A stretch of DNA of 62,118 nt from an uncultured Gammaproteobacteria bacterium. GTDB lineage: Bacteria > Patescibacteriota > Patescibacteriia > UBA1558 > S5-K13. Positions 1 through 25,499 of this stretch are shown piece after piece. The first letter of the stretch is position 1. Every line of letters begins with the position of its first letter. Location of the stretch: positions 1 to 62,118 of the forward strand of contig CAZXFD010000005.1 in NCBI GenBank assembly GCA_964640635.1, written 5' to 3'. A program made the translations under genes and the position numbers. The notes below the pieces were generated by a model. It worked only from the letters and a program-made list of their open reading frames with translations. It had not been told where the DNA came from and searched no databases.

Positions 1-576
1 GATGCAACAAACGGACCAATCATAAGGTTAAAATCTGGAAGAAGTGATACTTACAAAGGAATAAGTATATTTGATAGCTCTGCTACTACTGAAAGATGGT
101 TTGTCGGTGCGTCATCAGCACAATTTGTTATAAGAAGAGGTGGTAGCACGAATGCTTTAAAGGTGGATACAAGTAGTAATATTGAAATGAGCAATGCTTT
201 AAATGTGAAAGGTGCTATATCATCAGACACCTTGAAAGAAGATCAATCAGATGATTCTGAAGGCAGATGTTTGTATGCAAATAATGATGGTGTTATAAAG
301 GCGAAAACAACTGATTGTGGTGCGGGTGGAGGAGGTGGTTTTTGGACGAGTAATGGAAATAATATTTATAGAAATTCAGGTAATGTAGGAATAGGAACAA
401 CAAATCCAACACAAAAATTAGAAGTTAATGGTAATATTAAATTTTCTTCCGTTAACAATCAAATTATAGGAACAGATTCTTCTATTGATAACTTGCCGGG
501 TGCAAAAATTGAGTTTGATCAATATGGAAATTTAATAATCACTGTTTCTAGTTTTATTCCATATGGAAATCGCTAA
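1..576 (+). CDS. C-terminal part of an exported/fibre-like repeat protein (5'-truncated by window)
   Basis: Frame 1 is open from base 1 (DATNGPIIRLKSG...) to TAA at 574-576; contains GNVGIGTTNPTQKLEVNGNI motif typical of tail-fibre-like beta repeats. Confidence 0.7.
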   Translation, partial: DATNGPIIRLKSGRSDTYKGISIFDSSATTERWFVGASSAQFVIRRGGSTNALKVDTSSNIEMSNALNVKGAISSDTLKEDQSDDSEGRCLYANNDGVIKAKTTDCGAGGGGGFWTSNGNNIYRNSGNVGIGTTNPTQKLEVNGNIKFSSVNNQIIGTDSSIDNLPGAKIEFDQYGNLIITVSSFIPYGNR

Positions 577-2491: not shown

Positions 2492-5400
2492 ATGCTAAAA
2501 GTTTTTAATAAAAAAAATAATAGAATTCTATTTTTTGCAATTATAATAATTGTTGTTTTTTCTTTTGTAATAAATACCAAATTTATATATAAAATGTTGT
2601 TTGCGCAAAATGAAAGTGGAACAGAAAATCCAGCAGGATGGAGTTGGAATAATATTTTTGGTTGGCATAGCGGAGGATGTAATGGAAGTTATTATGGAGA
2701 ATATGAGGATTTTTGTGGAATAGGAGAACCTGTTTTGGATGTAAATTTTGATAGTCAGGATTTTAATTTTACGACCGAGAGAATCAAAGATAATTCAATA
2801 AATCATTTTTCAGGAATAACTTCACATATAGATATTGCAAACGTTAGAAATAGAACTGGTAGCTCCAATTTTAATCAGTCTATTTATTTTGATGGAGTAA
2901 ATTCATTTATAGATTTTGGAATAAAACCAGAATTTAATTTTTCTAGCAATGCTCAGCCATTTTCTATAAGCGCATGGTTTAAATTAGATGACGCAGACTC
3001 TAATTATACAATATTTTCAAATGGTATAGGAAACAATGGACAATATATGTGCTATGTAGATACATCTTTAAAAGTTATATGCTTTATTGCTGGTAATAGA
3101 TTTGAATCTGATGAGGAAGCTGTGTTGTATGGCAAGTGGTATAATTTGACAATTACATATTCAGGATCAGATGATTCAAAATTTAATATATATCTTGGTC
3201 GCTATGATAATAATAAAGTTGTAACTGATTATTTATTTAAGGATAGGATCATATCTTCTTATGAAAATCATACAAATAGTAATTTATTAATAGGTAAGGG
3301 GAAAATAACTACAATAGGAGTAGACAATTTTTTCAAAGGTGAAATAGATGATTTTAGAATATTCAATGTTGCACTTACAGCTGAGCAAGTGCTTCATAAT
3401 ATGTCTCACAATTCAAATTATTCTATAAAAATAGATGAGTTAAATGGTAAGATTTCCGGATGGGTTTGGAATCAAGGTTTGGGATGGATTTGTGTAGGAG
3501 AAACTTGTTCACCATCAACTCCTCCAATTGGTGGTTTTTCAGCAAATCTTTCAGATACAAAACTAAATTGGCAAGGAAATATGAGTCAGGGTATATATCC
3601 TAATATGATAACTGGTTGGGCAAAGGTGAATAATCCAAATCCAAATAGTTTAGATCCAAATAATGGATGGATTTCTTTTCAGGGGGATGTTTTGACACCT
3701 ACCCAAAGAACTTATTCACAGTGCGCTAGTTGTGTCACAAGAGATAGAGAAGACGGGCTTGTGGGCTATTGGAAAATGGATGATGGATCTGATAATACAG
3801 TGTCTGATTCATCTGGATTCGATAGAGATGGAGTAATAAAAGATTATGAATCTGAAAATTGGGTTTTGAGTGGATGTGTATTGAATAATTGTTTTGCCCC
3901 AAAAACCGAAAATAATTTTGTAGAAATTTCAGGCATAGAAAGAATAAGCACTAATAATTTTTCTTTTGAAGTTTGGATAAAAATGAATGAGGCTATGAAG
4001 GGCGGGGGATATATATTGGGATTTAGAGGAGCAGACAAATCAAATTTTGTAATGCTTTTTAATGAGGAAACAATAAATGTCAAATTGTTAAAAATAGATG
4101 TATGGGCAGATGGGCGAACTATTTTAGATAAAAAATGGCACCATATTGTTTTTACAGCAGATAGACGAGGAGATGCAAAGATATATATAGATGGCAAGTT
4201 ATCAGAAAAATCAGTTAAAAATATTAGTGATTTAGCAAATGAAGAAATCAATGAAGACGTCTTAAATATTGGTAGTTCCGAAAAAATAGAGAGACTGAGT
4301 GGTGGTTTTGAAAAAATGGAAAATTGGAATGGTGAAATAGATGTTGTAAGAATGTATAGTAGAGCCATTAGCAAAGAAGAAGTCGCTTATAATTATAGAT
4401 ATGTAGAAAAAAGAACATGTTCTGCATGTTTTGATATAAAAACAGATTTTACACAAAATATTTGTTATGAATGTAATACTTGTTATTTTTCAGATTCTTT
4501 GTATAAATGTGATTCTTGTTATCGCTGTCATAAATATGGACTTGTTTTTGATTCAAATACAGCAAGTGTAAAAGGATATGCTTGGGGAGGAAAAGATTAT
4601 GGGTGGCTCAAGTTTGGACCAAGCTTGGGTTCTGGAATATATAGATCCTATGTTTCTGCAAAATATGGAAATATATATAGTAAGGGTAATATTGGATCAG
4701 ACTATTCTGTCACTCCGCCAATAGGTTCTTACAATTCATCTTATCTTATACAAGCCAATGGCCATCTCATAAATTGGGCAAGTGAAAGCTCCGTTACAAA
4801 ATTAGTTCAAGGATCTGTTACAACAACAATTCCTAATTTCAACCCTACAAAGCCGTGGCTAAATTATTTTGGAAATCCAAGAGGATATACGGCTCCTGTT
4901 TATGAATATCCAAAAAATACCAACGATTACGGAAATGTTTTAGGAAGTATTGATTATGACAAATTGGTAGCAAAGGCAAGAGTAGATAATCATACTTTTC
5001 CAGGTATAGTAAATGGAACAAATAATGGAATTACTACTTGTCTGGGTGGTAAAGTATATTATAATAATGCAGCTACAACGCTCGGCAATGCTGGTGGGTC
5101 ATCATTAACATTTTTAAACGCTGCTTCATTGAGTCTTTGCTCAGATGCTTCTGGATTATTAATTATTAATGGAGATTTAACGATCACTGGCGATATTTTT
5201 TATCAAGCCAATCCCGTAAGTGGTAGTTATAAATCGCTTGCCTCAGCAGCTTGGATAATAAAAGGAGATTTATTTATAGATCCAAACGTTACAAATTTAG
5301 CAGGAACATTTATTGTACTTGGACGAGATGATATAGATTGTGGTAATAACCTAGATGATCCGACAGAGGGATGTGGTATTATATATACAGGGGATAGTGA

Positions 5401-5587
5401 CAAGCAATTAAAAATTTCTGGTCAAATTATGGCAAAGAATTTTCAGTTTCAAAGAAAATATAAAGATGCTATGAAAAGTCCAGCGGAGCTTGTGATATAT
5501 GATGGAAGAAATATTATAAATCCACCAATGGGACTAGGAGATCTTATGAAATCTCTTCCAAGATGGGATCAGATAGCACCTTATTAA
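2492..5587 (+). CDS. Large exported protein with two LamG/concanavalin-like domains, GWxW repeats and Cys-rich segment
   Basis: N-terminal TM; two FSxxxW...W.H/N...G.ID..R.Y/F LamG units; GWSWNNIFGW, GWVWNQGLGW, GYAWGGKDYGW repeats; directly upstream of pilM. Confidence 0.8.
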   Translation: MLKVFNKKNNRILFFAIIIIVVFSFVINTKFIYKMLFAQNESGTENPAGWSWNNIFGWHSGGCNGSYYGEYEDFCGIGEPVLDVNFDSQDFNFTTERIKDNSINHFSGITSHIDIANVRNRTGSSNFNQSIYFDGVNSFIDFGIKPEFNFSSNAQPFSISAWFKLDDADSNYTIFSNGIGNNGQYMCYVDTSLKVICFIAGNRFESDEEAVLYGKWYNLTITYSGSDDSKFNIYLGRYDNNKVVTDYLFKDRIISSYENHTNSNLLIGKGKITTIGVDNFFKGEIDDFRIFNVALTAEQVLHNMSHNSNYSIKIDELNGKISGWVWNQGLGWICVGETCSPSTPPIGGFSANLSDTKLNWQGNMSQGIYPNMITGWAKVNNPNPNSLDPNNGWISFQGDVLTPTQRTYSQCASCVTRDREDGLVGYWKMDDGSDNTVSDSSGFDRDGVIKDYESENWVLSGCVLNNCFAPKTENNFVEISGIERISTNNFSFEVWIKMNEAMKGGGYILGFRGADKSNFVMLFNEETINVKLLKIDVWADGRTILDKKWHHIVFTADRRGDAKIYIDGKLSEKSVKNISDLANEEINEDVLNIGSSEKIERLSGGFEKMENWNGEIDVVRMYSRAISKEEVAYNYRYVEKRTCSACFDIKTDFTQNICYECNTCYFSDSLYKCDSCYRCHKYGLVFDSNTASVKGYAWGGKDYGWLKFGPSLGSGIYRSYVSAKYGNIYSKGNIGSDYSVTPPIGSYNSSYLIQANGHLINWASESSVTKLVQGSVTTTIPNFNPTKPWLNYFGNPRGYTAPVYEYPKNTNDYGNVLGSIDYDKLVAKARVDNHTFPGIVNGTNNGITTCLGGKVYYNNAATTLGNAGGSSLTFLNAASLSLCSDASGLLIINGDLTITGDIFYQANPVSGSYKSLASAAWIIKGDLFIDPNVTNLAGTFIVLGRDDIDCGNNLDDPTEGCGIIYTGDSDKQLKISGQIMAKNFQFQRKYKDAMKSPAELVIYDGRNIINPPMGLGDLMKSLPRWDQIAPY

Positions 5588-5716: not shown

Positions 5717-6814
5717 ATGGGTTTATTTAAAGAAAAAAAACAAGATTTTTTAGGCATTGATATAGGAACATCCGGTATCAAAATTGTTCAACTTGCAAAT
5801 TATAATGGGAAAGCAAGAATTGTTACCTATGGAATGGTAGAAATGAATTCTGATCTTATAAGAAATAGAACACCAAGATTGTTAAAAGATGTTAGCGTCT
5901 CTATAAAAAAACTACTTGAAAAATCAAGAGTATCTACAAAAATTTGTTCAGCAGCGCTTCCTACGTTTTCTGTTTTTAGTTCTGTAATAAGTCTACCCAA
6001 GATGGATAAGGTTGATATGGATTCAGCTGTGAAATGGGAGGCAAAAAAGTTTATACCACTTCCAATGGAGGATATGATACTTAGTTGGGAGCTCATGGGA
6101 AGAAATAAAGCACAAACAAAAATAGCGCCAGAAAAATTTACAAATGAAAAAGGTTTTATTGAAACCCAATCAAGCTTTGATAAAGTATTTCTTACTGCTG
6201 CACCAAAGGGTGTTGTAAGTACATATATAGATCTTTTTAAGGGCTTAGGTATAGATTTATATAGTCTTGAAATAGAATCTTTTGCAACAGCAAGATCTCT
6301 TATTGATGACAGACTTACAACAACAATGATAGTAGATATAGGATCTATTACAACAGATGTTTGCGTTGTAGAAAATGGTTTTCCAATTTTAAATAGAAGT
6401 ATTGAAATAGGTGGAAATATTATGACAAAAGGAATAGCAGCTAGTATGAATGTAAGTGAAGAAAGAGCGGAGCAGTTTAAGAGAGATTTTGGACTAGTAT
6501 CGCTTGGAGAAAATGGAGGTGGCATTCCAAGAATTATAGAAGAAACTCTTAATCCAATGGTTAATGAAATTAAGTATGTTTTTGATCTGTATCGTCGCCA
6601 AGGGAACGGAACAGTAGAGAAAATAATATTATCAGGTGGCTCTGCTTATTTGCCAAATATTGTTAATTATCTTCAAAGTGTTTTAAATACACCAGTATAT
6701 ATTGGAGATGCATGGCATAAAGTAATGTATCCAAAAGAATTAAAACCAGTTCTTGATGAAATAGGTCCAAGATTTTCTGTTGCTATAGGACTTGCACTTA
6801 AAAATATAGTATAA
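5717..6814 (+). CDS. pilM: Type IV pilus assembly protein PilM
   Basis: LGIDIGTSGIK, VDIGSITT, ILSGGSA actin-fold motifs; C-terminal AIGLAL; first gene of pilMNO. Confidence 0.93.
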   Translation: MGLFKEKKQDFLGIDIGTSGIKIVQLANYNGKARIVTYGMVEMNSDLIRNRTPRLLKDVSVSIKKLLEKSRVSTKICSAALPTFSVFSSVISLPKMDKVDMDSAVKWEAKKFIPLPMEDMILSWELMGRNKAQTKIAPEKFTNEKGFIETQSSFDKVFLTAAPKGVVSTYIDLFKGLGIDLYSLEIESFATARSLIDDRLTTTMIVDIGSITTDVCVVENGFPILNRSIEIGGNIMTKGIAASMNVSEERAEQFKRDFGLVSLGENGGGIPRIIEETLNPMVNEIKYVFDLYRRQGNGTVEKIILSGGSAYLPNIVNYLQSVLNTPVYIGDAWHKVMYPKELKPVLDEIGPRFSVAIGLALKNIV

Positions 6815-6898: not shown

Positions 6899-7867
6899 AT
6901 GAGTGATATAAATTTATTACCAGAAGATTTAAGAAAGAATGAATCAAAAATTCTGCAAGGCAGAGGATCTTTTTCTTATACTGATACTGAAGTTGAATAT
7001 ACGCCTGGAGAAAAATTACAAAAAAATGGAATTGGGGTTGTAGTTGATAAAGATAATAGTAAATCAAGAAATACTACAAATAATTTTAATAAAAATATAG
7101 CAACTCCTTACGTAGAAAAAAATATAAATATAGAGAAAGAAAGAGCTTATAATCCCCCAGTATTAGAGAAAAAAAATATTGTAAGTGAAAGTAATGAGAA
7201 TAAAAATAAAAAAGTAGGACAGGTAAGATCAAAGATGACTTTAGGAAAATTTTTAGCAAAGATAGATTTAGCTCTCAGATCCAAAAAGACTAAAAAAATG
7301 GAATCGGGTATTAATCTTATTCCAGAGAGCTTGAAAGCACCCTCTAATAAGGTTTTATTTTTTACTTTTTTTTATCCACTTTTGATTGTCGTGGGAATTG
7401 TTTTGGTGATATATTCTGGTTTAAAAATTTATGATATTCAAATACAAAACAACATAAAAGATGTTGATAATCAGGTTACAAGTGTTGTAGAGAGTGCGGG
7501 AGATTATAATAAATTAATTGTAGAGTTAGAGGATTGGCAAAATAAAACAAAAAAGATCAAAAATATTTTGACAAAGCATATTTATTGGACAGAGTTTTTT
7601 AGAAAATTAGAAGACAATACACTTGCAAATGTGAAATTTAATAATTTTTCAGGAAATATTCAGGGTAATCTTACATTTTTGGCAACAGCTCCAGATTATA
7701 CGACTGTCGTGCGTCAGTGGATGCACCTAAAAAGAGCAAAGGATTTTGTTAAAAATGTTATAATAAGTGGAGCAACGCTTTCTACAGGTCAAGCAGCTGG
7801 TAGTGGCGGAGTTTCTTTTTCAGTGACCCTAGATTTAGCTGAAGATATTTTTTATAAAACAGAATAA
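6899..7867 (+). CDS. pilN: PilN-like alignment protein with long N-terminal low-complexity linker
   Basis: N-terminal INLLP motif (repeated as INLIP), single TM, coiled coil, follows pilM. Confidence 0.7.
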   Translation: MSDINLLPEDLRKNESKILQGRGSFSYTDTEVEYTPGEKLQKNGIGVVVDKDNSKSRNTTNNFNKNIATPYVEKNINIEKERAYNPPVLEKKNIVSESNENKNKKVGQVRSKMTLGKFLAKIDLALRSKKTKKMESGINLIPESLKAPSNKVLFFTFFYPLLIVVGIVLVIYSGLKIYDIQIQNNIKDVDNQVTSVVESAGDYNKLIVELEDWQNKTKKIKNILTKHIYWTEFFRKLEDNTLANVKFNNFSGNIQGNLTFLATAPDYTTVVRQWMHLKRAKDFVKNVIISGATLSTGQAAGSGGVSFSVTLDLAEDIFYKTE

Positions 7868-7878
7868 ATAATTGAAAA

Positions 7879-8553
7879 ATGTTTGAAGATAAACAACAAA
7901 ATTCAAAAGAAGGTATCAAAGAAGAAAGAATAGATATCAAAGTTGGTAAAATCAAGAAAGATTCAAAACTCATTCTTTGGCTTATGAAATATAAAAAAGC
8001 CTTTATTCTTTTTGAGATGATTATATTTTTTGTGTCGTCCTACATTTTCTTTATTGGGCCAGAAGTTATGAAAGTGATTACATCGAAACAAATTTTATCT
8101 TCTAAAGAACAAGCACTTGTAGAAGCACAAAGTTTCAAGTTAAAAGTAGAAGAACTTCAAAGAGAGAGGGATGGAATACTTAGTCAAGACAATCAATATG
8201 CAAAAAAATTATATGAAGTTTTACCTCAAAAACAAAATTTACCAGAAATTATGGCCCAGGTAGATGCTCTTGTAAGAGATTATGGGCTCGTATTAGGAAG
8301 CGTGCAAATACAGGGCACTCAAGAAGATTCATCTGATGGTGAAATTCCAAACAATGAAGCACCAATAGGAGATATAATAAAAATAGTTCAAGTTACAGCC
8401 TTTGTTTTGGGTGGAGACGGAAGCTATGAGAAGGTAAAATTATTGTTAGATGGACTAGAAACTCATATAAGACTTTTTGATATAACCTCATTTAGTTTTG
8501 ACCCAGAAATGACAACTTATTCAATAGTTTTTAAGACCTATTATCTAGATTAA
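7879..8553 (+). CDS. pilO: PilO-like protein
   Basis: TM plus coiled coil, LPxxxNLPE motif, RLFDI strand; position after pilN. Confidence 0.7.
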   Translation: MFEDKQQNSKEGIKEERIDIKVGKIKKDSKLILWLMKYKKAFILFEMIIFFVSSYIFFIGPEVMKVITSKQILSSKEQALVEAQSFKLKVEELQRERDGILSQDNQYAKKLYEVLPQKQNLPEIMAQVDALVRDYGLVLGSVQIQGTQEDSSDGEIPNNEAPIGDIIKIVQVTAFVLGGDGSYEKVKLLLDGLETHIRLFDITSFSFDPEMTTYSIVFKTYYLD

Positions 8554-8557
8554 AAAA

Positions 8558-8923
8558 ATGGCAAAAAAAAATAAAAAAAATACATTGTTAATTATTGCTT
8601 TCATCATTTTAATGATCGCCGTAATTTATTTGAATAAAGAAAGACTTGGAATTAATACTTCAAAAGTAAGCGATATTATAATTCCAGACAGTGTTGTAGT
8701 TTCTAATAATGATCAAGTAAGCGAAATTAAAGCAAACAAAGATAAAATAGATAAAATTTTAAAAGAAACCAAGGACCTTCTACAAAAAGATCAGGGGTTT
8801 TTGAATAATTTACATTCTTATATAAGTCTTCCTATGACAGAGGATGAATATAAGTTTTTCATAGGTACTGTTCACAATGACTATCCATTTGGAAATCCAA
8901 TAAACGAAAAAAACAAAGAATGA
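8558..8923 (+). CDS. Small single-TM protein (PilP position)
   Basis: Lys-rich N-terminus plus TM; stop overlaps pilB start (ATGA). Confidence 0.6.
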   Translation: MAKKNKKNTLLIIAFIILMIAVIYLNKERLGINTSKVSDIIIPDSVVVSNNDQVSEIKANKDKIDKILKETKDLLQKDQGFLNNLHSYISLPMTEDEYKFFIGTVHNDYPFGNPINEKNKE

Positions 8924-10671
8924 TAAGCGACTACATAAATAAAATATTAGGTGCGATAAAAGAAAATAATTTATTAGACAACGATAAATTTTCTTTTCTG
9001 CAAGACAAACTAAAAAAAGAAAGTCCAAATATAGATGAACTTGTTAAAAAATATTCTCTTGTTGGTCAGGAAGAGTATGCAAAGATAAAGTCTCAGGCTA
9101 TAGGTATGCCCTATAAAGATCTGGTTGATGAGAATATTGGAAATGAAGCTCTTAGAATTTTGCCAATGAATTTAGCATCTAATTACAAGATGATAATTTT
9201 TAATAGGGTAAATGATATTTTGGAAGTAGGACTTGTTGACCCTGAAAATTTTAGTGCAATAGAAGCAGTAGAGTTTCTAGCGCATAAAAATAATTATAAT
9301 GTAAAATATTATCTTATATCAGAGAACTCTTTTAATAGTGCATTTAAAAAAGCACAAAACATAGAAGAAGAGGTTGGCGAGGCACTTGATTATGCAAAAG
9401 ACAAATTTGAAGATCTGGGAGATGTTGTAGAAGAAGAAAACTTAGAGGAAATAATTAAAACAGCCCCAGTTACAAAAATAGTTTCAGTTTTACTCAAGCA
9501 TGCGGTAGATGGAAGAGCATCAGATATTCACATAGAGCCCATTGGAAAAAATTCTGTAATAAGATTTAGAATAGATGGTGCACTTCATAAGTCCATTATT
9601 CTTCCTATATATATACATAATGCCCTTATAGCAAGAGTAAAAGTTATGTCGAACATGAAAATTGATGAAACAAGGATTCCCCAAGATGGAAGAATAAGAG
9701 TAAACGTCAAAAGTCAGGGAGAAGAAAAGAAGATAGATCTTAGAGTTTCCACTCTTCCACTATTGGATTATGAAAAAGTCGTAATGAGAATTTTAAGCAC
9801 GCCAGAAACAGTTCCAGATTTTGAAGAATTGGGTTTTATGGGAGAAGCGAGAAAGAAAATAGAGGTTGCAATAACAAAACCAAATGGGATGTTGCTCGTT
9901 ACAGGACCTACAGGAAGTGGTAAATCGTTTACTCTTTTTACTGCTTTAAATAGAATAAACAAAGAAGCTGTAAATATTTCAACATTAGAAGATCCAGTCG
10001 AGTATAGTGTTGAAGGTGTTAATCAATCTCAAATAAGACCGGAGGTAGATTATACATTTGCTACTGGACTTAGGTCACTACTTCGTCAAGATCCGGATAT
10101 TATCATGGTTGGAGAAATTAGAGATGCCGAAACAGCTGAGCTTGCTATTCACGCTGCTCTTACAGGACATCTTTTATTGTCCACACTTCATACAAATAAT
10201 GCACTAGGTGCAATTCCAAGACTTATGGATATGAAGGTAGAGCCATTTCTTTTGAGCTCCACTCTTAATCTTGTCCTTGCACAACGTTTAGTGCGAAAGA
10301 TTTGTGATAATTGCAAAGAAGAAATGAATTTACCAGAATCCCTGAATAAAGAAATAGAACAAATGATACAAGATTTACCAGAATCAGCTTTTTATGGTAA
10401 ATTTAAGAAAGGAGATAAGCCAAAATTTTATCGTGGCACAGGTTGTAATAGATGTGGCGGGACAGGATATAAAGGAAGATTAGCAATTGTTGAGGCATTT
10501 GAAATGGATAATAATTTGAAAGATGTCATCAATCAAAAGGCAGATATGATAAGGTTTCAGAACGAACTTAAAAAGCAAGGCTATATAAACATGGCCCAAG
10601 ATGGAGTTATAAAATCACTAGATGGAATTACAACAATACAAGAGGTTTTGAGCGTGACAAAGGATGAATAA
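8920..10671 (+). CDS. pilB: Type IV pilus extension ATPase PilB (GspE family)
   Basis: ASDIHIEP, Walker A GPTGSGKS, TLEDPVEY, Walker B DIIMVGE, GHLLLSTLH, CxxC...CxxC zinc motif. Confidence 0.95.
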   Translation: MISDYINKILGAIKENNLLDNDKFSFLQDKLKKESPNIDELVKKYSLVGQEEYAKIKSQAIGMPYKDLVDENIGNEALRILPMNLASNYKMIIFNRVNDILEVGLVDPENFSAIEAVEFLAHKNNYNVKYYLISENSFNSAFKKAQNIEEEVGEALDYAKDKFEDLGDVVEEENLEEIIKTAPVTKIVSVLLKHAVDGRASDIHIEPIGKNSVIRFRIDGALHKSIILPIYIHNALIARVKVMSNMKIDETRIPQDGRIRVNVKSQGEEKKIDLRVSTLPLLDYEKVVMRILSTPETVPDFEELGFMGEARKKIEVAITKPNGMLLVTGPTGSGKSFTLFTALNRINKEAVNISTLEDPVEYSVEGVNQSQIRPEVDYTFATGLRSLLRQDPDIIMVGEIRDAETAELAIHAALTGHLLLSTLHTNNALGAIPRLMDMKVEPFLLSSTLNLVLAQRLVRKICDNCKEEMNLPESLNKEIEQMIQDLPESAFYGKFKKGDKPKFYRGTGCNRCGGTGYKGRLAIVEAFEMDNNLKDVINQKADMIRFQNELKKQGYINMAQDGVIKSLDGITTIQEVLSVTKDE

Positions 10672-10706
10672 GTTGAGGTACGAAATAAGAATTAAAATTT
10701 AAATAT

Positions 10707-11087
10707 ATGGGTTACAAAAAAATTAAAATTTTGATAGCAGAGGATGATCCGTTTTTGTCACAGATGTATAGCGAAAAATTGGAAATGGAGGGCTATGACG
10801 TCACTCTTTCAACAGATGGTGAGTCAGCACTTGATAAAATGAAACTTGTAAAACCAGATATTGTATTACTTGATTTGCTAATGCCAAAAAAAGATGGTTT
10901 TGAAGTTCTTTCAGAAAAATCTACAGACATAGATATCAAGGATATACCAGTTATAGTTCTTACAAATCTTTCTCAGAATGAGCAGATAAAAAAATGTTAT
11001 GATTTGGGCGCAAAAGATTTTTTAATAAAAGCTTATTTTGTGCCAGCTGAAGTAATTCAGAAAATAAAGGATGTGCTAAATAAGTAA
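10707..11087 (+). CDS. Stand-alone response-regulator receiver (CheY-like)
   Basis: IAEDD, VLLDLLMP phospho-Asp, conserved T and K. Confidence 0.9.
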   Translation: MGYKKIKILIAEDDPFLSQMYSEKLEMEGYDVTLSTDGESALDKMKLVKPDIVLLDLLMPKKDGFEVLSEKSTDIDIKDIPVIVLTNLSQNEQIKKCYDLGAKDFLIKAYFVPAEVIQKIKDVLNK

Positions 11088-11162
11088 GAAGTATAAAGGA
11101 CGAGGTCCAAAGTCTAAATAAAATTAAAAATACGATTTTATCTTATATTTTGTATTTATTAT

Positions 11163-11236
11163 TTCAAACCTTATCCTTAATAACTTAACACTCCTTGCAC
11201 TTCATACTTCAAACCTTATCCTTAATAACTTAACAC
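11163..11236 (+). repeat. Perfect 29-bp direct repeat, 2 copies
   Basis: TTCAAACCTTATCCTTAATAACTTAACAC at 11163-11191 and 11208-11236. Confidence 0.9.
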
Positions 11237-11237
11237 C

Positions 11238-12290
11238 GTGCCAGCAATAGAACAATTACAATTAAATGAACTCATAAATCAAGCCATAAAAGAGCAAGTA
11301 AGCTCTATTTATTTCAATATAAGTAATTATCCTACTGTAGAAATTTTTGGTTCGCTCAAGTCTTTAAAAGACAAGCCAATTCTTACAAAAGAATTTTTGG
11401 AAACAATAGCTTCTAATTTTTTGTCAGATAATCAAAGAAGAATGTTGGATGAAAAAAAAGAGCTAAAAGTTGCTTATGATTGGTCTGCAAAAGTAAGATT
11501 GATTATGAATTTTTTTTATCAAAAACAGTCTCTTTCTATTTCTATAAAAATAGTCCCAACCCAACTAATGGATATTAATGATTTTGAGATTTCATCTATT
11601 ATGCAACAAGCAGTAGGTATGAATTCTGGCCTTGTAATAATTTGTGGGCCAGCATCATCAGGACGTAGTATGACTGTTTTATCGATGATAGATTATATAA
11701 ACAAAAATCAAGAAAAAAGAATAGCCACAATAGAAGAGCCAATTGAATATCAGTTTGTAAATAATTTGTCTATAATAAATCAAAGAGAAGTGGGTCTTGA
11801 TGTTGAATCTTTTGAAGAAGGACTCAAAAATGTCATTGATGAGAGTGTCGATGTAGTATATGTTTCTAAAATTCAGTCAAAAGAAGAAATAAATCTTGTA
11901 TTACAGGTTGCCTCTTCTGGTAAGCTAGTTTTTGTGATTATAGATAGTGAGTCAATAATAGAGCTTTTGGATAAAATTTTTGGAAGTTTTGATTTGTCAG
12001 AAAAAGAATGGGCAAAAAGCCTTGTAACAGAGTCTTTAAAAATTATTATAAATCAAAGAATGTTTCAAAAGGTGGGGGGCGGTCAAATAGTAACAGCAGA
12101 AGTTCTTACAATGACTCAATCAAGTAAGCCAATAGTAAAGTCATTTAAATTTGATCAGCTTAAATCAATAATGCAAACATCTAGAAGAGAAGGAATGCAA
12201 GATCTAGATGGAGTTATTAGAGATCTTTTGCAACGCGGGGTAATTAGATCAGAGGAAGCAAAAAAATATTTATCATCATTAAGTATATAA
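11238..12290 (+). CDS. pilT: PilT-family protein with degenerate catalytic motifs
   Basis: PilT-like layout (EPIEY, INQREVG, SIMQTSRREGMQ) but Walker A GPASSGRS, Walker B VYVSK, His box lost. Confidence 0.8.
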   Translation: MPAIEQLQLNELINQAIKEQVSSIYFNISNYPTVEIFGSLKSLKDKPILTKEFLETIASNFLSDNQRRMLDEKKELKVAYDWSAKVRLIMNFFYQKQSLSISIKIVPTQLMDINDFEISSIMQQAVGMNSGLVIICGPASSGRSMTVLSMIDYINKNQEKRIATIEEPIEYQFVNNLSIINQREVGLDVESFEEGLKNVIDESVDVVYVSKIQSKEEINLVLQVASSGKLVFVIIDSESIIELLDKIFGSFDLSEKEWAKSLVTESLKIIINQRMFQKVGGGQIVTAEVLTMTQSSKPIVKSFKFDQLKSIMQTSRREGMQDLDGVIRDLLQRGVIRSEEAKKYLSSLSI

Positions 12291-12291
12291 A

Positions 12292-13503
12292 ATGTCAGTT
12301 TTTTCATACAAAGCATTAAATGAAAATGGTCAGAGTATATCTGGTTTTGTTGACGCACCATCTGTTGATATTGCAGAAGGGGCACTCCTTGAAAGAGGAT
12401 TCAAAATTATAGATATTCAAGAAGAATCAAGTAATGAATTTTCTTTGGTAAAGCTTTTGCCATTTTTAAATAAAATAGGAAAGAAAGACTTAGTTATTTT
12501 TTCAAGACAGTTGTCTGTGATGATTTCAGCTACTGTGCCTATTATTCAAGCGCTTCGCGCAATATCCAAGCAAACTAAGAAGCTTCCACTACAGAAAGTA
12601 ATAGATGAAATTGCTGATGATGTAGATGGTGGTATGAAGTTGTCTGACGCATTTGATAAACACGATGCATTTGATAATGTTTTTGTAAATATGATAAGTG
12701 CTGGAGAAACATCGGGTAAGTTGGACGAAGTCTTAGAATACTTGGCGGATGAGATAGAAAAAAGCTATGACCTAGAGTCAAAAATAAAAGGTGCAATGAT
12801 TTACCCAGCTTTTATAGTGGGCGGACTTATTGTAGTCGGTGTTGCTATGATGGTGTTTGTTTTGCCAAATATGGTAGGAATGCTTGAGGAGTCAGGACAG
12901 ACACTCCCACTCCCTACAAGAATTTTGATATTTATAAGTGGCGCTTTAAGAAATTATTATTATTTGGTTCTTTTGTTTTTGTTTGGAGTCGTAGGAGGTT
13001 CTTATGTATTTGTCAAAAAGACAGTTGTTGGGGCAAATATTTTCAACACTGTAAAGCTCAAGTTCCCAGTATTTGGAAAGTTGTGGCAATATATTTATGT
13101 CGTTAGATTTTCAGGAACTCTATCAAGTCTTCTTGCAGCAGGTGTTTCTCTTACGGGTGCTCTTAGAATTTCGGGAGAAGTTGTCGGAAATGTAAAATAC
13201 AAAGAAGTTATTACAGGAACCATTGCAAAGGTAGAGGATGGTTATTCTATGGCGGATACACTTGCAAAATCAGAAATTTTTCCATCAATGGTAATTCAGA
13301 TGATAAGAGTGGGAGAAAAAACTGGTAAAATGAATTTGGTTTTAGATAAATTATCTAGTTTCTATGCAAGAGAGGTCAAAAATATTGTTTCAAATCTTTC
13401 TTCACTTCTTGAGCCAATAATTATGGTGGTCATTGGTATTGCTGTTGCTGGAATGGTAGCTGCTGTGCTTATGCCTATGTATAATATGGCGAATGCGTTT
13501 TAG
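12292..13503 (+). CDS. pilC: Type IV pilus platform protein PilC (GspF family)
   Basis: FSRQLSVM, AGETSGKLD, YPAF, GEKTGKM, LLEPII motifs. Confidence 0.95.
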   Translation: MSVFSYKALNENGQSISGFVDAPSVDIAEGALLERGFKIIDIQEESSNEFSLVKLLPFLNKIGKKDLVIFSRQLSVMISATVPIIQALRAISKQTKKLPLQKVIDEIADDVDGGMKLSDAFDKHDAFDNVFVNMISAGETSGKLDEVLEYLADEIEKSYDLESKIKGAMIYPAFIVGGLIVVGVAMMVFVLPNMVGMLEESGQTLPLPTRILIFISGALRNYYYLVLLFLFGVVGGSYVFVKKTVVGANIFNTVKLKFPVFGKLWQYIYVVRFSGTLSSLLAAGVSLTGALRISGEVVGNVKYKEVITGTIAKVEDGYSMADTLAKSEIFPSMVIQMIRVGEKTGKMNLVLDKLSSFYAREVKNIVSNLSSLLEPIIMVVIGIAVAGMVAAVLMPMYNMANAF

Positions 13504-13555: not shown

Positions 13556-14074
13556 ATGAACAAAAACAAAAAAGGTTTTACGATTATTGAACTTCTGGTT
13601 GTAATTGCAATTATTGGATTGCTATCGACCCTTGCTCTTAACTCTCTTGATAATGCAAGAAAGAACGCAAGAGATACAAAGAGAGTATCAGATTTAAAAA
13701 CTATTCAAAAAGCTCTTGAAATGTATGCAAATGCGCATGATGGTCATTTGCCTACAGGACCAGTAATCAACTTTAGTAGCCAGTTGGCAGAATATTTACC
13801 AGAAGGTTTACCACACAATCCTTTTTATGGAGTTATTAGATATTATTGGATATGCACAATTGGCACCAAATATATTTTATATGCAGATATGGAAAAAAAT
13901 ATTTATACACAAGCCTCTAAACCGGTTAATGATGATTTTAATTCTATTTCGGGATGTTATTATTTTCGTTATACCAGTCCAACTGCAAAGTCTAATGGGC
14001 TTTATACTTTTTCTCGCGCAATAAACTGTAGTCTTGATAATACGTATTGTTTTTCAGGAACTTTTACACCCTAG
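13556..14074 (+). CDS. Type IV pilin 1
   Basis: KKG|FTIIELLVVIAIIG class III signal peptide, ARDxKRxSD helix. Confidence 0.93.
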   Translation: MNKNKKGFTIIELLVVIAIIGLLSTLALNSLDNARKNARDTKRVSDLKTIQKALEMYANAHDGHLPTGPVINFSSQLAEYLPEGLPHNPFYGVIRYYWICTIGTKYILYADMEKNIYTQASKPVNDDFNSISGCYYFRYTSPTAKSNGLYTFSRAINCSLDNTYCFSGTFTP

Positions 14075-14204
14075 GAATTATTGTATTTGTCGTGTTTTGA
14101 AATTTGTGTTATATAATTTTTTCATCTCTTTATTATCGAAGATGGGGTGGGAGGTATAAAGGTGAAAGTTTCTTGTATTTCTCCTTCCGCCTAATTTTAA
14201 TTTA

Positions 14205-14213
14205 TGCTATAAT
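14205..14213 (+). promoter_or_regulatory. Extended -10 promoter upstream of pilin 2
   Basis: TG-C-TATAAT. Confidence 0.5.
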
Positions 14214-14349
14214 ATTTATATAAATAATGTTGATAAAAAAAGACTTTTGGGTTTGTCAAAGGTCAAATTAAAATAATTAAAATAAATAAGGTTATGAGTT
14301 CTACTGGGATTTACCTAGACTAGAGACATAACTAAGAAAGCTAAATAAA

Positions 14350-14805
14350 ATGAAGAAAAAAGGTTTTACTCTGATTGAGCTCTTGGTTGTAATCGCAATC
14401 ATTGGGCTACTATCAACACTTGCTGTAGTTTCTCTTGGAACTGCAAGAGGAAAAGCAAGAGATGCAAAAAGAATTTCTGATGTAAAAGCAATTCAAACCG
14501 CTATTGAAATGGCAAAAAATGATAATAATGGCAACATTGTTTTGACCAATATAGCAGCTTATATACAGGGTGGAATGCCTACTAGTAGTTTGGGATTTTA
14601 TATTTGTACTACAACAGATAAATATTTAATTGGGGCTAAGTTAGAAGATACTGGTGGAACTGGATCAATAACAACAAAGCCAACGTGGTTAGGTACTAAT
14701 GCTATGTGTGTTAAAACAGAAGCATTAACTGCAACACCTGTAGCATTACCAGCAACACATGAATGTACACTAGCAAGTAAAAGTTTTTGTACTGGCGATA
14801 ATTAA
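14350..14805 (+). CDS. Type IV pilin 2 (candidate major pilin)
   Basis: KKKG|FTLIELLVVIAIIG; has its own upstream promoter-like region. Confidence 0.93.
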   Translation: MKKKGFTLIELLVVIAIIGLLSTLAVVSLGTARGKARDAKRISDVKAIQTAIEMAKNDNNGNIVLTNIAAYIQGGMPTSSLGFYICTTTDKYLIGAKLEDTGGTGSITTKPTWLGTNAMCVKTEALTATPVALPATHECTLASKSFCTGDN

Positions 14806-14880
14806 AATTTTTTTATGTAATTTAAATGCTAAAACTAAAAATTTTAAATTTATAGTTTAGCATAAAAAGGATTTAATAAT

Positions 14881-15357
14881 ATGAAGAAAAAAGGTTTTAC
14901 ACTGATCGAGCTCTTGGTTGTAATTGCGATCATTGGGCTACTATCAACACTTGCTGTAGTTTCCCTTGGATCTGCAAGACAAAAGGCGGCTGATGCAAAG
15001 AGAATTTCTGATTTAAAAGCAATTCAAACAGCAATGGAGATGGTCAAAAACAATGCTGATCCAGAACTAGCAACAAATAGCACTACAACGCTTGGAGGAT
15101 ATATTCAGGGTGGTTTTCCAAAGCCAGTAAGCGATAGTTTCCTTTATTATATTTGTGCAAATGGATCAAGTTCTTTAATGGCCGCAACACTGCAAGCTAC
15201 CGGAGCTAATACAGCATCACCTATTTCAGGATCACCAACTACATATACAGCTGCTACACATTGTGTATCTGTTAATAGTAATTGGGTTAGAACTCCTCTA
15301 ACAGATTTTACGAATTTAAATTGTGGTACAAATGCATATTGTATTGGTGTTAAATAA
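14881..15357 (+). CDS. Type IV pilin 3
   Basis: KKKG|FTLIELLVVIAIIG; first 30 aa identical to pilin 2. Confidence 0.93.
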   Translation: MKKKGFTLIELLVVIAIIGLLSTLAVVSLGSARQKAADAKRISDLKAIQTAMEMVKNNADPELATNSTTTLGGYIQGGFPKPVSDSFLYYICANGSSSLMAATLQATGANTASPISGSPTTYTAATHCVSVNSNWVRTPLTDFTNLNCGTNAYCIGVK

Positions 15358-15374
15358 GAAGTAGTAGTTTTTTC

Positions 15375-15406
15375 AAACCCCGTTCATTTATAATGGCGGG
15401 GTTTTT
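15375..15406 (+). terminator. Intrinsic terminator after pilin 3
   Basis: AAACCCCGTT...GGCGGGGTTT stem followed by T-run. Confidence 0.75.
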
Positions 15407-15428
15407 AGTTTGTTGAAATTAGAAAAAC

Positions 15429-15466
15429 CCAACCCTGGGTTAGTCTATCGACTAACCCAGGGTTGG
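15429..15466. repeat. Perfect 17-bp inverted repeat
   Basis: CCAACCCTGGGTTAGTC-TATC-GACTAACCCAGGGTTGG. Confidence 0.9.
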
Positions 15467-15525
15467 TGTGATTAAATACTTTATGTAAATATGATATAAT
15501 AATTACATAAATATTTTTATATCGC

Positions 15526-16056
15526 ATGAATAATTGTAAAAATAAAAATTTCAAGAAAAAAGCCTTTACTCTTATTGAGCTTTTGGTTGTAATTGCTATT
15601 ATTGCACTTTTATCAACGCTCGTTTTAAATGCTTTTAGTAGTACAAGGTCAAAGGCGAGAGATGCGAAAAGAAGATCTGATTTAGTAGCCATTCAAAAAG
15701 CTATGGAGATGTATAAAGATAGTAATTCTAAACAAGAGGCAACAAATGATATTAATTTATTGAGTATATATATTCAAGGCGGATTTCCAAAACCAACAAG
15801 CGACAAATTTTATTATGTTTGTAAGGGTATTAACTGGGTTGGGAATAGAGATCTGACAAAATATTTAGTTGGTGTTGAATTAGAAAATGATCAAATTTCT
15901 CCAGATCAACTTTCTTCACCGCCATCGGGGAATACCCTTAATTCTTATAGCGCTACGGGATGTATATCTATTAATAATAATTTAGCTACAACTACTGTGA
16001 CTCAAGCAAGTGTTCCTTGTTTTGAATCTAATGTATATTGCGTTGGTAATAAATAG
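15526..16056 (+). CDS. Type IV pilin 4
   Basis: KKKA|FTLIELLVVIAIIA; YIQGGFPKP shared with pilin 3. Confidence 0.92.
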   Translation: MNNCKNKNFKKKAFTLIELLVVIAIIALLSTLVLNAFSSTRSKARDAKRRSDLVAIQKAMEMYKDSNSKQEATNDINLLSIYIQGGFPKPTSDKFYYVCKGINWVGNRDLTKYLVGVELENDQISPDQLSSPPSGNTLNSYSATGCISINNNLATTTVTQASVPCFESNVYCVGNK

Positions 16057-17646: not shown

Positions 17647-20505
17647 ATGCTTAGAAAGCAAAAGTTATTAGCGTTTACAATTATAATTGTTTTTACGCTA
17701 TTTTTTATCTTAGCTCAGTCTACTCAAGCAAGTAGTGTTTTTGTTTTTAACAAGGATCTGCAAATAGGTAATGTTAATACTGATGTTAGAGAATTACAAA
17801 AGTTTTTGAATAATAATGGGTTTGTTTTAAATAAATCTGGTCTTGGCTCAAGGGGTAGAGAAACAACATTTTTTGGATTATCGACTAGAAATGCTTTAAT
17901 AAAATTTCAAAAGGCCAACAAAATTAACCCAGCTTTAGGATATTTTGGTTCTATTAGTAGAAATGTAGTTAATAAGAAAATGGAATTATTGTCTACAAGC
18001 TCTAGTTTTTTAGAAAATAAAGTTAATAATAATTTACCCGTCAATCAAATCAATAATCATCTTAATCAAAATATTAAAAGCGATTATTTTACTATCGGAG
18101 GCAATATTACTGGTATTGTTGCTACTGTAACTTTACAAAATAATGGTAAAGACGATTTAATTATTAATCTTGGTGATAATAGTAATTTTACATTCACCAT
18201 ACCATTAGCTGATAGGGCAAATTATAATATAACAGCCAAATCAAATTATATAGGTCAAAATTGCTATGTTTACAATGGTATTGGATCAGTTAATGGATCT
18301 AATGTAGAAAATATTAAAATTGCCTGTGGTTTGAATTTGCTATATAACCCATTTACTTTTAAATTGTCCGGATCTTCTATCAATACATTTACCCTTGTGT
18401 ATTCAGCAGGAGCACATGGCTCAATCACAGGATCAAGTTCTCAAATAGTAAATCGTGGATCAGACGCTTCTTCTGTCATCGCAATTCCAGACACTGGATA
18501 TCATTTTACTTCTTGGAGTGACGGTGTTTTAACAGCTATTAGAACAGATGTAAATATAACTTCTGCTTTTTCAGTTACTGCCAATTTTGCAATTAATACT
18601 TACGAAATTACATCATCTGCTGCTAGTAATGGTTCTATTACTGAAAGTCAGACAGTAAATTATGGAGCAAATCAAATCTTTGTTATTACTCCTTCTGCAG
18701 GTTATAGAGTTAGTGATGTTTTGATTGATGGTGTTTCAATTGGTTCTGTTGAAACATATATATTTAGTAATGTCACAGCTACACATAATATTTCTGCAAC
18801 TTTTATAAAAATAATTTCTGTCCCAGCTATTGCTGGGGTGACAGCACCAGTAACGGGTGCAACACCAGTATCAACTATTGATGATACTACAGAATATACA
18901 GCAACGATTACGTGGTCACCAGCGGGCGTATCCTTTACTCCAGTCACGCAATATACGGCTACGATTACCATTGCCCCAAAAGCAGGATATACATTGATGG
19001 GTGTATCTGAAAATTTTTTTACTGTAAATGGTGGCGTAGCAACCAATAATATAAATGAAGGAGTTGTTACGGTGGTTTTCCCAGAAACCCTAGCGATACC
19101 GATTACAGTAATAGGGGCAATCAGTGGAACATCCCAGGTCGGGTCAATATTAACAGCGGGAGCAATTACACCGTTAGATGCAACTGTAAATTATCAATGG
19201 AAAATATCTGAGACAGTAGATGGTATTTATGAAAATATAGTTGGTGCAACAAATAATACTTATACAATAGTCCTAGGAGATGTAGGAAAATTTATTAAAG
19301 TTGTCGCAACAGGTACTGGAAATTATTCTGGAACACAGACAAGTGAGGCTACAAGCGCTATCTCGCCCAATGTCACATCTAATTTAACTGGATTAGCTCT
19401 AAGCGGCTCCCCAGCAAATTATACTTTTGTTGGAAGTACTTATGATTATAATAATGTTTCGGTTTTTAATAGTGTAAGTAGTATTACAATAACCCCAACA
19501 GGAGTTGGATCTATAACTGTAAATGATGTATCTGTTATTTCTGGATCACCCTCTGGTGCTATAAATTTAACTGCTGGAGCAACAACAACAATTACAATTT
19601 CTGTTGCAGAATCTGAAAAATTACCAATAACTTATACGATTAATGTGTATAGAAATTCTATTCAAGCCACTCCTACATTTAGCTCTGCTTCTGGTGCACT
19701 TACATTTGGCACCACTGTAACAATTACTTCAAGTGGAGCAGACGCTATATATTACACCACCAATGGAGACGACCCAACGACATCATCTACCAATCAAGCA
19801 ACAACACCACTAGTTATTAATTCAACTGTGACGGTTAAGGCACTGGCAGTAAAATCTGGATATGATAATAGCGCTATTGGAAACGCATCTTATACTGCGC
19901 AAGTCATTTATGACTCCTATACTTATCCAATTGTACAAATAGGAAATCAGTATTGGTTTCAAAAAAATCTTGCAACCGCACACAATAATGATGGTACAAA
20001 TGTTACTAATATAACAAATGCCGCTAATTGGTCCACTGCCAATGTAAATGCATATGCTTGGTATAATAACGATTATGCTACTTATGGATCTGTTTATGGG
20101 GCTTTATATAATAATTTAGCAGCTACAAACGGTAAACTTTGTCCAGTCGGTTGGCATGTTCCAACAGATGAGGATTTAAAAATTTTAGTAGAGGGACAGG
20201 CAACAATAGGTTGTGAATCTGGTACAGATTGGCAATGTTCCCCAGCGGGAAGTGCTTTAAAAGAGTCTGGAACTACTCATTGGGGATCTCCAAATACAGG
20301 AGCAAATAATGCCTCTGGTTTTACTGCTTTAGCAGGGGGTTACCGCAATACTTCGGGTACGTTTGTTAGTCAGGGAACCTATAATTATTTATGGTCATCA
20401 TCTGTAAATAGGGCTAGCAGGCTTTTATCTAAAGATAATACAGATGTTTATCGTAATTTTGCTGGCGCTGTTAATGGTTTTTCTATACGTTGTTTGAAAG
20501 ATTAA
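17647..20505 (+). CDS. Secreted multidomain surface protein: peptidoglycan-binding domain, Ig/InlB-B-like repeats, cadherin-like and Fn3-associated domains, C-terminal Fib_succ_major-like domain
   Basis: Signal peptide; DVRELQKFLN...FGLSTRNALIKFQ; YTLVYSAGAHGSI repeats; QIGNQYWFQKNL, YGALYN, LCPVGWHVPT, GFSIRCLKD. Confidence 0.8.
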   Translation: MLRKQKLLAFTIIIVFTLFFILAQSTQASSVFVFNKDLQIGNVNTDVRELQKFLNNNGFVLNKSGLGSRGRETTFFGLSTRNALIKFQKANKINPALGYFGSISRNVVNKKMELLSTSSSFLENKVNNNLPVNQINNHLNQNIKSDYFTIGGNITGIVATVTLQNNGKDDLIINLGDNSNFTFTIPLADRANYNITAKSNYIGQNCYVYNGIGSVNGSNVENIKIACGLNLLYNPFTFKLSGSSINTFTLVYSAGAHGSITGSSSQIVNRGSDASSVIAIPDTGYHFTSWSDGVLTAIRTDVNITSAFSVTANFAINTYEITSSAASNGSITESQTVNYGANQIFVITPSAGYRVSDVLIDGVSIGSVETYIFSNVTATHNISATFIKIISVPAIAGVTAPVTGATPVSTIDDTTEYTATITWSPAGVSFTPVTQYTATITIAPKAGYTLMGVSENFFTVNGGVATNNINEGVVTVVFPETLAIPITVIGAISGTSQVGSILTAGAITPLDATVNYQWKISETVDGIYENIVGATNNTYTIVLGDVGKFIKVVATGTGNYSGTQTSEATSAISPNVTSNLTGLALSGSPANYTFVGSTYDYNNVSVFNSVSSITITPTGVGSITVNDVSVISGSPSGAINLTAGATTTITISVAESEKLPITYTINVYRNSIQATPTFSSASGALTFGTTVTITSSGADAIYYTTNGDDPTTSSTNQATTPLVINSTVTVKALAVKSGYDNSAIGNASYTAQVIYDSYTYPIVQIGNQYWFQKNLATAHNNDGTNVTNITNAANWSTANVNAYAWYNNDYATYGSVYGALYNNLAATNGKLCPVGWHVPTDEDLKILVEGQATIGCESGTDWQCSPAGSALKESGTTHWGSPNTGANNASGFTALAGGYRNTSGTFVSQGTYNYLWSSSVNRASRLLSKDNTDVYRNFAGAVNGFSIRCLKD

Positions 20506-22041: not shown

Positions 22042-22127
22042 ACTATTATTATATATGGTTTTCTAATAATAAAACAACCCATATGGATAAGTGGCGCCCT
22101 TTAGAAAAGAAATTTTTATATTTGAAG

Positions 22128-24167: not shown

Positions 24168-24172
24168 TTTAT

Positions 24173-25450: not shown

Positions 25451-25499
25451 TTTGAGGTGATTATTGTTTAAATTATAATTTTTTCCAATAAAAAATAGC

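Follow-up and report, generated by a model that had tools for sequence, protein, structure and literature searches.

A PilT homolog that has lost its catalytic residues is retained under strong selection in pilus operons of Patescibacteria

A central part in the host attachment, movement and DNA uptake of the ultrasmall bacteria of the candidate phyla radiation (CPR) is attributed to type IV pili. PilT-like ATPases share a fully conserved set of residues, comprising the Walker motifs, the catalytic Glu, a pair of arginine fingers and the Asp-box glutamate (PMC5424180). Walker A serves ATP binding, the Walker B glutamate polarises water, the Asp and His boxes are required, and the adjacent R206 of PilT also matters (PMC6762196); single substitutions of these catalytic residues inactivate PilT (PMC6762196; PMC5065972). 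The PilT of TM7x (Saccharibacteria) is reported to have conserved Walker boxes (PMC11623550). Here we describe a pilT homolog, which we call pilT*, from a Candidatus Komeilibacteria (Patescibacteria/CPR) genome, on contig CAZXFD010000005.1 of assembly GCA_964640635.1 (positions 1 to 62,118; this whole stretch of 62,118 nucleotides is referred to as the window). Its product has the fold of PilT but has lost the catalytic apparatus, and the gene is under strong selection within a pilus operon. In the literature searched, we found no description of a degenerate, inactive or pseudo-ATPase PilT in CPR.

PilT* resembles canonical PilT, as represented by the proteins of Aquifex aeolicus (2ewv) and Pseudomonas aeruginosa (3jvv), PilT4 of Geobacter metallireducens (6ojx) and the CPR proteins TM7x PilT and P0033, in fold, size and position between pilB and pilC, and it has in common with them the QRE motif, the glycines of the P-loop and the glutamates of the Asp box and the pore loop. 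In contrast, replacements have occurred at the Lys of Walker A, at the catalytic Glu, at the two His of the His box and at both arginine fingers, as well as at the R206 equivalent and the arginines of the AIRNLIRE motif. Engineered Walker A and Walker B mutants of PilT, and the R206S PilT of Vibrio cholerae MO10, are hydrolysis-defective but still function as adaptors for PilU (PMC6762196). However, these variants carry single substitutions and PilU is encoded beside pilT, whereas PilT* shows many losses, fixed lineage-wide, with no PilU-like gene nearby. PilU, a PilT paralog, lacks the canonical AIRNLIRE motif as PilT* does, and the PilU structure 9n32 is a close structural match to PilT*, but PilU keeps all catalytic motifs and its gene lies beside an intact pilT, which sets PilT* apart from it. 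Retraction without a dedicated motor has been documented elsewhere (bioRxiv 10.1101/2021.02.10.430637, 10.1101/2021.01.17.426607; PMC6920026); Com pili of monoderms, Tad pili with the bifunctional CpaF and motor-independent retraction offer a functional setting in which a non-motor PilT-type protein could go together with dynamic pili. Such systems lack a PilT homolog, whereas the operon described here has kept a protein derived from PilT, under selection. The archaellum component FlaH is a nucleotide-binding, catalytically inert RecA-fold protein that regulates a type IV filament motor. Its likeness to PilT* is one of concept only; FlaH is KaiC-like and no PilT homolog.

Fold and catalytic motifs of the pilT* product

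The open reading frame (ORF) of pilT* begins with GTG and encodes 350 aa (Table 1). The original prediction had described it as full length and adjoining pilC, and this was borne out, with the pilT* stop at 12290 and the ATG of pilC at 12292. In a phmmer search of PDB sequences, residues 5-342 aligned to A. aeolicus PilT (2ewv) with an E-value of 1.4e-57, and full-length alignments were also obtained to P. aeruginosa PilT (3jvu), Thermus PilT2, Geobacter PilT4 and PilU. The protein has the two-domain PilT architecture of ~350 aa, without the N-terminal domains or the Cys4 zinc motif of PilB. An AlphaFold2 model of the monomer, built on the alignment of the clade described below, had a mean predicted local distance difference test score (pLDDT) of 87.3 and a predicted template modelling score (pTM) of 0.85, and Foldseek superposed it on PilT4 with template modelling (TM) scores of 0.90-0.91, which indicates that the predicted PilT fold is intact. 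Against the NCBIfam PilT/PilU model TIGR01420 the protein scored 249.9 bits, below the cutoff of 319.1, compared with 462.3 bits for the canonical CPR PilT P0033. With the Pfam model PF00437 (T2SSE) it scored 56.2 bits, above the gathering threshold of 24.9, in a match limited to residues 120-279. Logan contigs from four wastewater-metagenome runs reproduced positions 10700-12300 with 0 differences at 14-32x depth, and the sequence is therefore no assembly artefact.

PilT* belongs to a discrete clade of ~25 database proteins at 51-98% identity to it, followed by a gap down to 38%. In public records these proteins bear generic names ('ATPase, T2SS/T4P/T4SS family', 'TadA') or the name 'twitching motility protein PilT'. 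All clade members carry the patterns CGPxSxGR[ST], VY[VL]S[KR]I and SGKLV....D, and most carry TIEEP. A set of 157 canonical PilTs, in which 72 positions are at least 90% conserved, served for comparison with the 26-member clade at those positions. The four motif changes named in the original prediction (GPASSGRS, TIEEP, DVVYVSKIQS and GKLVFVIID) were all present, opposite the canonical motifs in the alignments with 2ewv and 3jvu. The Walker A lysine is replaced by R143, which is found in 26/26 clade members, whereas all 157/157 canonical PilTs have Lys. At position 211, that of the catalytic glutamate, the clade has Lys in 14 members and Arg in 12, and the atypical Walker B signature Dhhhh-GE is missing. 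Likewise, K229 and D236 stand in place of the two histidines of the His box, each in 26/26 members. The Asp box retains its Mg-coordinating glutamate, and its sole change is that of D167 to Glu.

The losses extend beyond those listed earlier. The arginine fingers R271 and R286 of PilB_Gm (PMC5424180) were mapped through PilB and PilT alignments onto positions 89 and 104, where PilT* has I89 and K104 and thus neither arginine. Furthermore, Q213 occupies the position equivalent to R206, D201 that of the Arg in 'LRED', and SSKPIVKS that of AIRNLIRE, the motif of PilT proper. Of the 72 positions, 30 are kept (including G131, G137, P138, G142, T146, N155, E166, P168, E170, Q182-R183-E184, E216, G228, Q273 and E288), 16 are swapped for another conserved residue (including G210S, R104K and T217E) and 26 have turned variable (including Glu211, now Lys or Arg, as well as R213, D214, R89 and S22-D23). 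Among the 16 swapped positions, the replacements K143R, H161R, R201D, H229K, H236D and R301K each occur in 26/26 clade members. Of the fully conserved set of the family, PilT* has kept nothing but the Asp-box Glu and the P-loop's glycine scaffold. The neighbouring PilB, as had been stated, has its motifs intact: GPTGSGKS, EDPVE, DIIMVGEIRD, GHLLLSTLHT and the Cys4 motif are all present.

Orthologs, selection and the wider degenerate family

Ortholog loci were located by scanning the clade alignment against species-representative genomes; a single-protein query gave one true ortholog together with unrelated gammaproteobacterial PilTs. Twelve species-level genomes, several of them labelled Candidatus Komeilibacteria, carry a pilT* locus. 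The gene order pilM-N-O-x-pilB-receiver-pilT*-pilC-pilin is the same in 12/12 loci, and pilT* is full length in each of them (346-357 aa), with no frameshifts. The ratio of nonsynonymous to synonymous substitution rates (dN/dS, Nei-Gojobori) of pilT* was 0.039 and 0.097 in comparisons with the two nearest genomes, four further pairs gave 0.06-0.13, and the overall range was 0.039-0.128, with dS near saturation for the more distant genome pairs. These values are not distinguishable from those of pilB (0.023-0.141) and pilC (0.029-0.132).

The chance that pilT* is on its way to becoming a pseudogene, or is an artefact of sequencing or assembly, is accordingly negligible, and we reject this explanation. 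The loss of the catalytic motifs and the Pfam T2SSE score of just 56 bits would fit decay, but the dN/dS of 0.04-0.13, the absence of frameshifts in 12 species, the invariance of the substituted residues and the identical sequence in four run assemblies stand against it. The pattern that the original prediction had named as a sign of simple decay, dN/dS near 1 with frameshifted orthologs, was absent, and the gene is retained.

The original prediction had overlooked that the gene belongs to a large degenerate family and is no isolated oddity. We ran phmmer across 1.8 billion representatives at 50% identity, compiled a motif table and tallied the 148 nearest representatives. In 79/148, one or more of three features (the Lys of Walker A, the catalytic Glu and a His-box His) are missing; the Walker A position is Arg in 39, the Glu is lost in 46 and both His are lost in 64. 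A genome scan with a sub-alignment yielded >512 relatives, and the best 80 of these carry the names Komeili-, Buchanan-, Falkow- and Kuenenbacteria, 'Parcubacteria' and unclassified Patescibacteria; such lineage names are record titles, some of them plainly wrong (CPR metagenome-assembled genomes labelled Gammaproteobacteria). Among the annotated loci the losses form a graded series, from the His box only (KDEEKSN), to the His box plus a Walker A Arg (R.EE.RN), to the additional loss of the catalytic Glu in the Komeilibacteria clade (REEKQKD).

In neighbour-joining trees, which are distance-based and whose separations may include long-branch effects, three groupings had full bootstrap support (200/200 each): the degenerate forms as against all canonical PilTs, CPR canonical and degenerate PilTs together as against non-CPR PilTs, and the Komeilibacteria clade. 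The CPR canonical PilTs alone found no support as a clade (22/200). The family of pilT* is thus well separated, spread over several Patescibacteria lineages and distinct from canonical CPR PilT, and the trees are compatible with its having arisen from within the CPR canonical PilTs. The canonical CPR PilT P0033 (GCA_001443025.1) occupies the same pilB-pilT-pilC slot, and we therefore regard pilT* as, most plausibly, a positional ortholog of pilT that degenerated in situ.

Several further forms were observed among the relatives. A separate degenerate subfamily with the signature KKEESRE (loci L110, L115, L123, L124 and L163; gene at ~10000-11060) keeps the Walker A Lys and has lost the His box. 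It lies directly upstream of pilM, a ~1060-aa ORF, dprA and topA, and pilB, pilC and the receiver gene are not nearby. Two tandem PilT modules were found in proteins of 700-1000 aa among the nearest representatives (P0121-P0125, P0123, P0145 and P0158), with one or both modules degenerate in several, which suggests that these proteins are built-in pseudo-dimers. The assembly CAIRBL01 (L102, L127) holds two complete pilM-N-O-pilB-RR-pilT*-pilC operons (RR, response regulator) on different contigs; either the pilus system is duplicated in this genome or the bin is mixed. In the titles of third-party annotation (TPA) metagenome-assembled genomes, pilT* operons (L001, L082, L085-L087, L091 and many of L098-L173) appear under 'uncultured Gammaproteobacteria bacterium' and canonical CPR PilT under 'uncultured Candidatus Saccharibacteria bacterium'. 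Both titles look like mapping artefacts, yet they split perfectly by PilT type.

The pilus operon and its neighbours

The features of the locus are listed in Table 1; the G+C content of the window is ~31%. As for PilT proper, pilT* is co-located with pilB and pilC, in the arrangement pilB-RR-pilT*-pilC, both in the window and in the 12 orthologous loci. A search for transcript evidence yielded no RNA runs.

Table 1. Features of the pilus locus and motifs of pilT* (positions in the window; aa numbering of the pilT* product)
Feature	Position	Strand	Remarks
pilM	5717-6814	+	annotated PilM; conserved synteny
pilN-like	6899-7867	+	conserved synteny
pilO-like	7879-8553	+	conserved synteny
small 121-aa ORF	8558-8923	+	conserved synteny
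pilB extension ATPase	8920-10671	+	all catalytic motifs and Cys4 zinc motif intact
receiver-only (CheY-like) response regulator, 126 aa	10707-11087	+	Pfam PF00072, 78 bits; between pilB and pilT*
tandem duplication, 45 bp	11150-11236	+	ends one base before the pilT* GTG; spacer unconserved in orthologs
pilT*	11238-12290	+	PilT-fold protein with degenerate catalytic motifs (pseudo-ATPase); ORF, PDB match, AlphaFold2, Foldseek
arginine-finger region (aa 89-104)	11502-11549	+	PilB R271/R286 equivalents are I89 (clade-variable) and K104 (96% Lys); R87 retained
Walker A-like P-loop GPASSGRS (aa 137-144)	11646-11669	+	canonical GPTGSGKS; Lys to Arg143; G137, G142, R143 clade-invariant
Asp box TIEEPIE (aa 164-170)	11727-11747	+	canonical TIEDPIE; D167 to Glu; E166 and Mg-coordinating E170 retained, invariant
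Walker B-like DVVYVSKIQS (aa 205-214)	11850-11879	+	canonical DV(I)F/LVGEMRD; G210 to Ser, catalytic Glu to K211, Arg to Q213, Asp to S214
His-box-like GKLVFVIID (aa 228-236)	11919-11945	+	canonical GHLVFGTLH; His to K229, His to D236
AIRNLIRE-equivalent helix SSKPIVKS (aa 295-302)	12120-12143	+	both Arg to Lys; Ile, Asn, Glu lost; hydrophobic positions kept
pilC platform protein (T2SSF)	12292-13503	+	begins 2 nt past the pilT* stop
four type IV pilin genes	13556-16056	+	N-terminal methylation motifs

The active site of the receiver (E12, D13, D14, D56, T86 and K108) is intact and 96-100% conserved in 72 orthologs, as in CheY-like proteins. No partner histidine kinase was found in the window by Pfam, and none in ~97 loci by a crude regular expression for the H-box and G2-box. 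In a first sample the receiver gene was present in 68/77 degenerate but only 3/16 canonical loci (Fisher p 8e-8). In a second sample, however, it lay upstream of pilT in 40/80 canonical CPR loci, and we therefore rejected the receiver as a module specific to degenerate PilT.

The tandem duplication in front of pilT* consists of two 42-nt copies that are 88% alike, with an exact 27-mer that occurs twice there and nowhere else in the window. The pilT* orthologs at L001 (98% identical) and L081 have ATG starts and unrelated spacers, and the spacer at L001 contains G/C-rich inverted repeats. The Logan contigs of run X4 break at 11223-11249.

Two genes whose products have N-terminal hydrophobic segments head the pilus operon: an RCC1-repeat (beta-propeller) protein at 627-2444 and a 1031-aa LamG/pentraxin-like protein at 2492-5587. 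The LamG gene is syntenic in 12/12 Komeilibacteria loci and fast-evolving, with a dN/dS of 0.26-0.34. By analogy with TM7x, for which an RCC1-propeller PilX2 has been described (PMC11623550), the two proteins may be pilus-associated adhesins. Just past the pilins, at 17647-20505, lies a gene for a 952-aa predicted surface protein with PG-binding, InlB B-repeat-like, cadherin-like, Fn3-associated and Fibrobacter 'Fib_succ_major' domains. Positions 20518-26591 (-), downstream of the pilus locus, hold relA/spoT, topA, a Mur-ligase-family gene and dprA, a neighbourhood that also comes after the pilus operon on a 524-kb JGI contig (L095). At the right end of the window, a DnaB-like ORF (61477-62079, -) is limited to the C-terminal portion of the DnaB_C domain, and the first ORF of the window (163-576, +) is the tail of an 886-aa gene on Logan contigs (L259).

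Candidate roles of pilT* and rival explanations

PilT* is an enzyme-family homolog whose catalytic residues are lost and whose gene is under purifying selection. On its sequence it would be classed as a lineage-wide, selected PilT pseudoenzyme that descends from the PilT family and lacks most of the defining features of PilT ATPases. In the reading that we favour, with a probability of roughly 0.6, it is a pseudo-ATPase that has probably kept the ability to bind nucleotide and whose action at the base of the pilus is non-enzymatic, for instance that of a competitor of PilB, a brake or a factor in passive retraction. The invariant P-loop glycines and Ser/Thr, the Mg-binding Glu and the fixed charge swaps make it probable that nucleotide, or some other phosphate ligand, still binds in the pocket and is not turned over. 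The retained pore-loop E216 and the amphipathic AIRNLIRE-like helix suggest that a PilT* ring would dock on the PilC/PilM platform, where it would compete with PilB. The simplest role would be that of a non-motor brake or clutch that ends extension. The pilus could then be locked and stabilised, or it could retract slowly and independently of a motor, and the CheY-like receiver of the operon may control the switch.

The main rival is that PilT* is an inactive adaptor, which would couple an active retraction ATPase encoded elsewhere in the genome, whether PilU-like or another PilT, to PilC. Its analogy is with V. cholerae, where inactivated PilT variants still support PilU-dependent retraction and the natural R206S makes PilU essential (PMC6762196), and PilT* does retain the fold and putative docking elements. 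However, tblastn with canonical PilTs revealed no second PilT-like gene in the 62-kb window, and none was found within +-10 kb in ~95 pilT* and related loci, whereas pilU normally adjoins pilT. Exact-protein look-ups lengthened the stretch by just ~2 kb upstream. We also compared the occurrence of the two PilT types among the best 80 loci listed per scan, plus 16 canonical loci. The 76 pilT* assemblies and the 80+16 canonical CPR loci had 0 assemblies in common and differed in lineage labels, with 0/96 canonical loci from an assembly or label that also carries pilT*; this points to mutual exclusivity of canonical PilT and pilT* among the loci compared. CPR genomes are, moreover, small. We consider the adaptor unlikely. 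The same evidence bears on the original prediction of a catalytically dead retraction-ATPase homolog kept as a scaffold, brake or hetero-hexamer subunit, possibly serving stable attachment to a host. That such a homolog has been kept is strongly supported by the comparison, its inactivity being read from the motifs, whereas a hetero-hexamer with an intact PilT has so far no support, since neither the window nor the ~95 loci contained a second PilT-like gene.

It is less probable still that PilT* is a working, perhaps slow, ATPase and retraction motor with a remodelled site that uses the P-loop Arg and other acidic residues as base. Such a motor would fit the invariance of the P-loop scaffold, of E166/E170 and of Q182-R183-E184. 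The replacements show no random pattern but are fixed, and could reflect a re-engineered site, and many family members keep the Walker B Glu beside a Walker A Arg. In the Komeilibacteria clade, however, the catalytic Glu, both His, both arginine fingers and R213 are jointly lost and the position of the catalytic Glu carries a positive charge, whereas single substitutions already inactivate PilT (PMC6762196; PMC5065972). That pilT* was recruited to a job outside pilus dynamics, such as DNA uptake or translocation or another secretion process, and merely stays in the operon is very unlikely. The position of dprA 13 kb from pilT*, and the orphan subfamily beside pilM and dprA without pilB or pilC, would be in line with such a job, but the pilB-RR-pilT*-pilC order with spacers of 1-100 nt is strict in every Komeilibacteria locus and in ~68 other loci, which speaks for joint expression and for a part in one and the same machine. 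The likelihood thus falls from residual ATPase activity through an unrelated function to decay.

Returning to a non-enzymatic pseudo-ATPase, several points weigh against this reading. PilT* is most likely without ATPase activity, as judged from its motifs, but the conserved P-loop could support slow hydrolysis. An intact PilT or PilU might be encoded elsewhere in the genome, and this would favour the adaptor model. Finally, the linkage of receiver and pilT is ancestral or common in CPR pilus operons, and the receiver is no specific partner of pilT*.

A tentative and rather doubtful extension concerns a major part of CPR, comprising Komeili-, Buchanan-, Falkow- and Kuenenbacteria and relatives. 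There, the sole PilT-type protein would be a nucleotide-binding, non-hydrolysing ring, and the pili of these episymbionts would not be motor-retracted at all. A PilT-derived clutch, possibly gated by the orphan CheY-like receiver, would instead switch them from extension to a state that is locked or retracts passively, and back.

The curated models fail to name these proteins, which fall below the TIGR01420 cutoff, and a dedicated family model would therefore improve annotation. A naturally fixed, strongly conserved PilT pseudoenzyme would also be a tool to separate the structural and docking role of PilT from its motor role, for which only engineered point mutants have been used so far. Genome surveys routinely count the presence of pilT as evidence of retraction or twitching, which would be wrong for these CPR lineages if they carry only a dead PilT. 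If this is true, the pili of those lineages would be regulated or retracted in another way.

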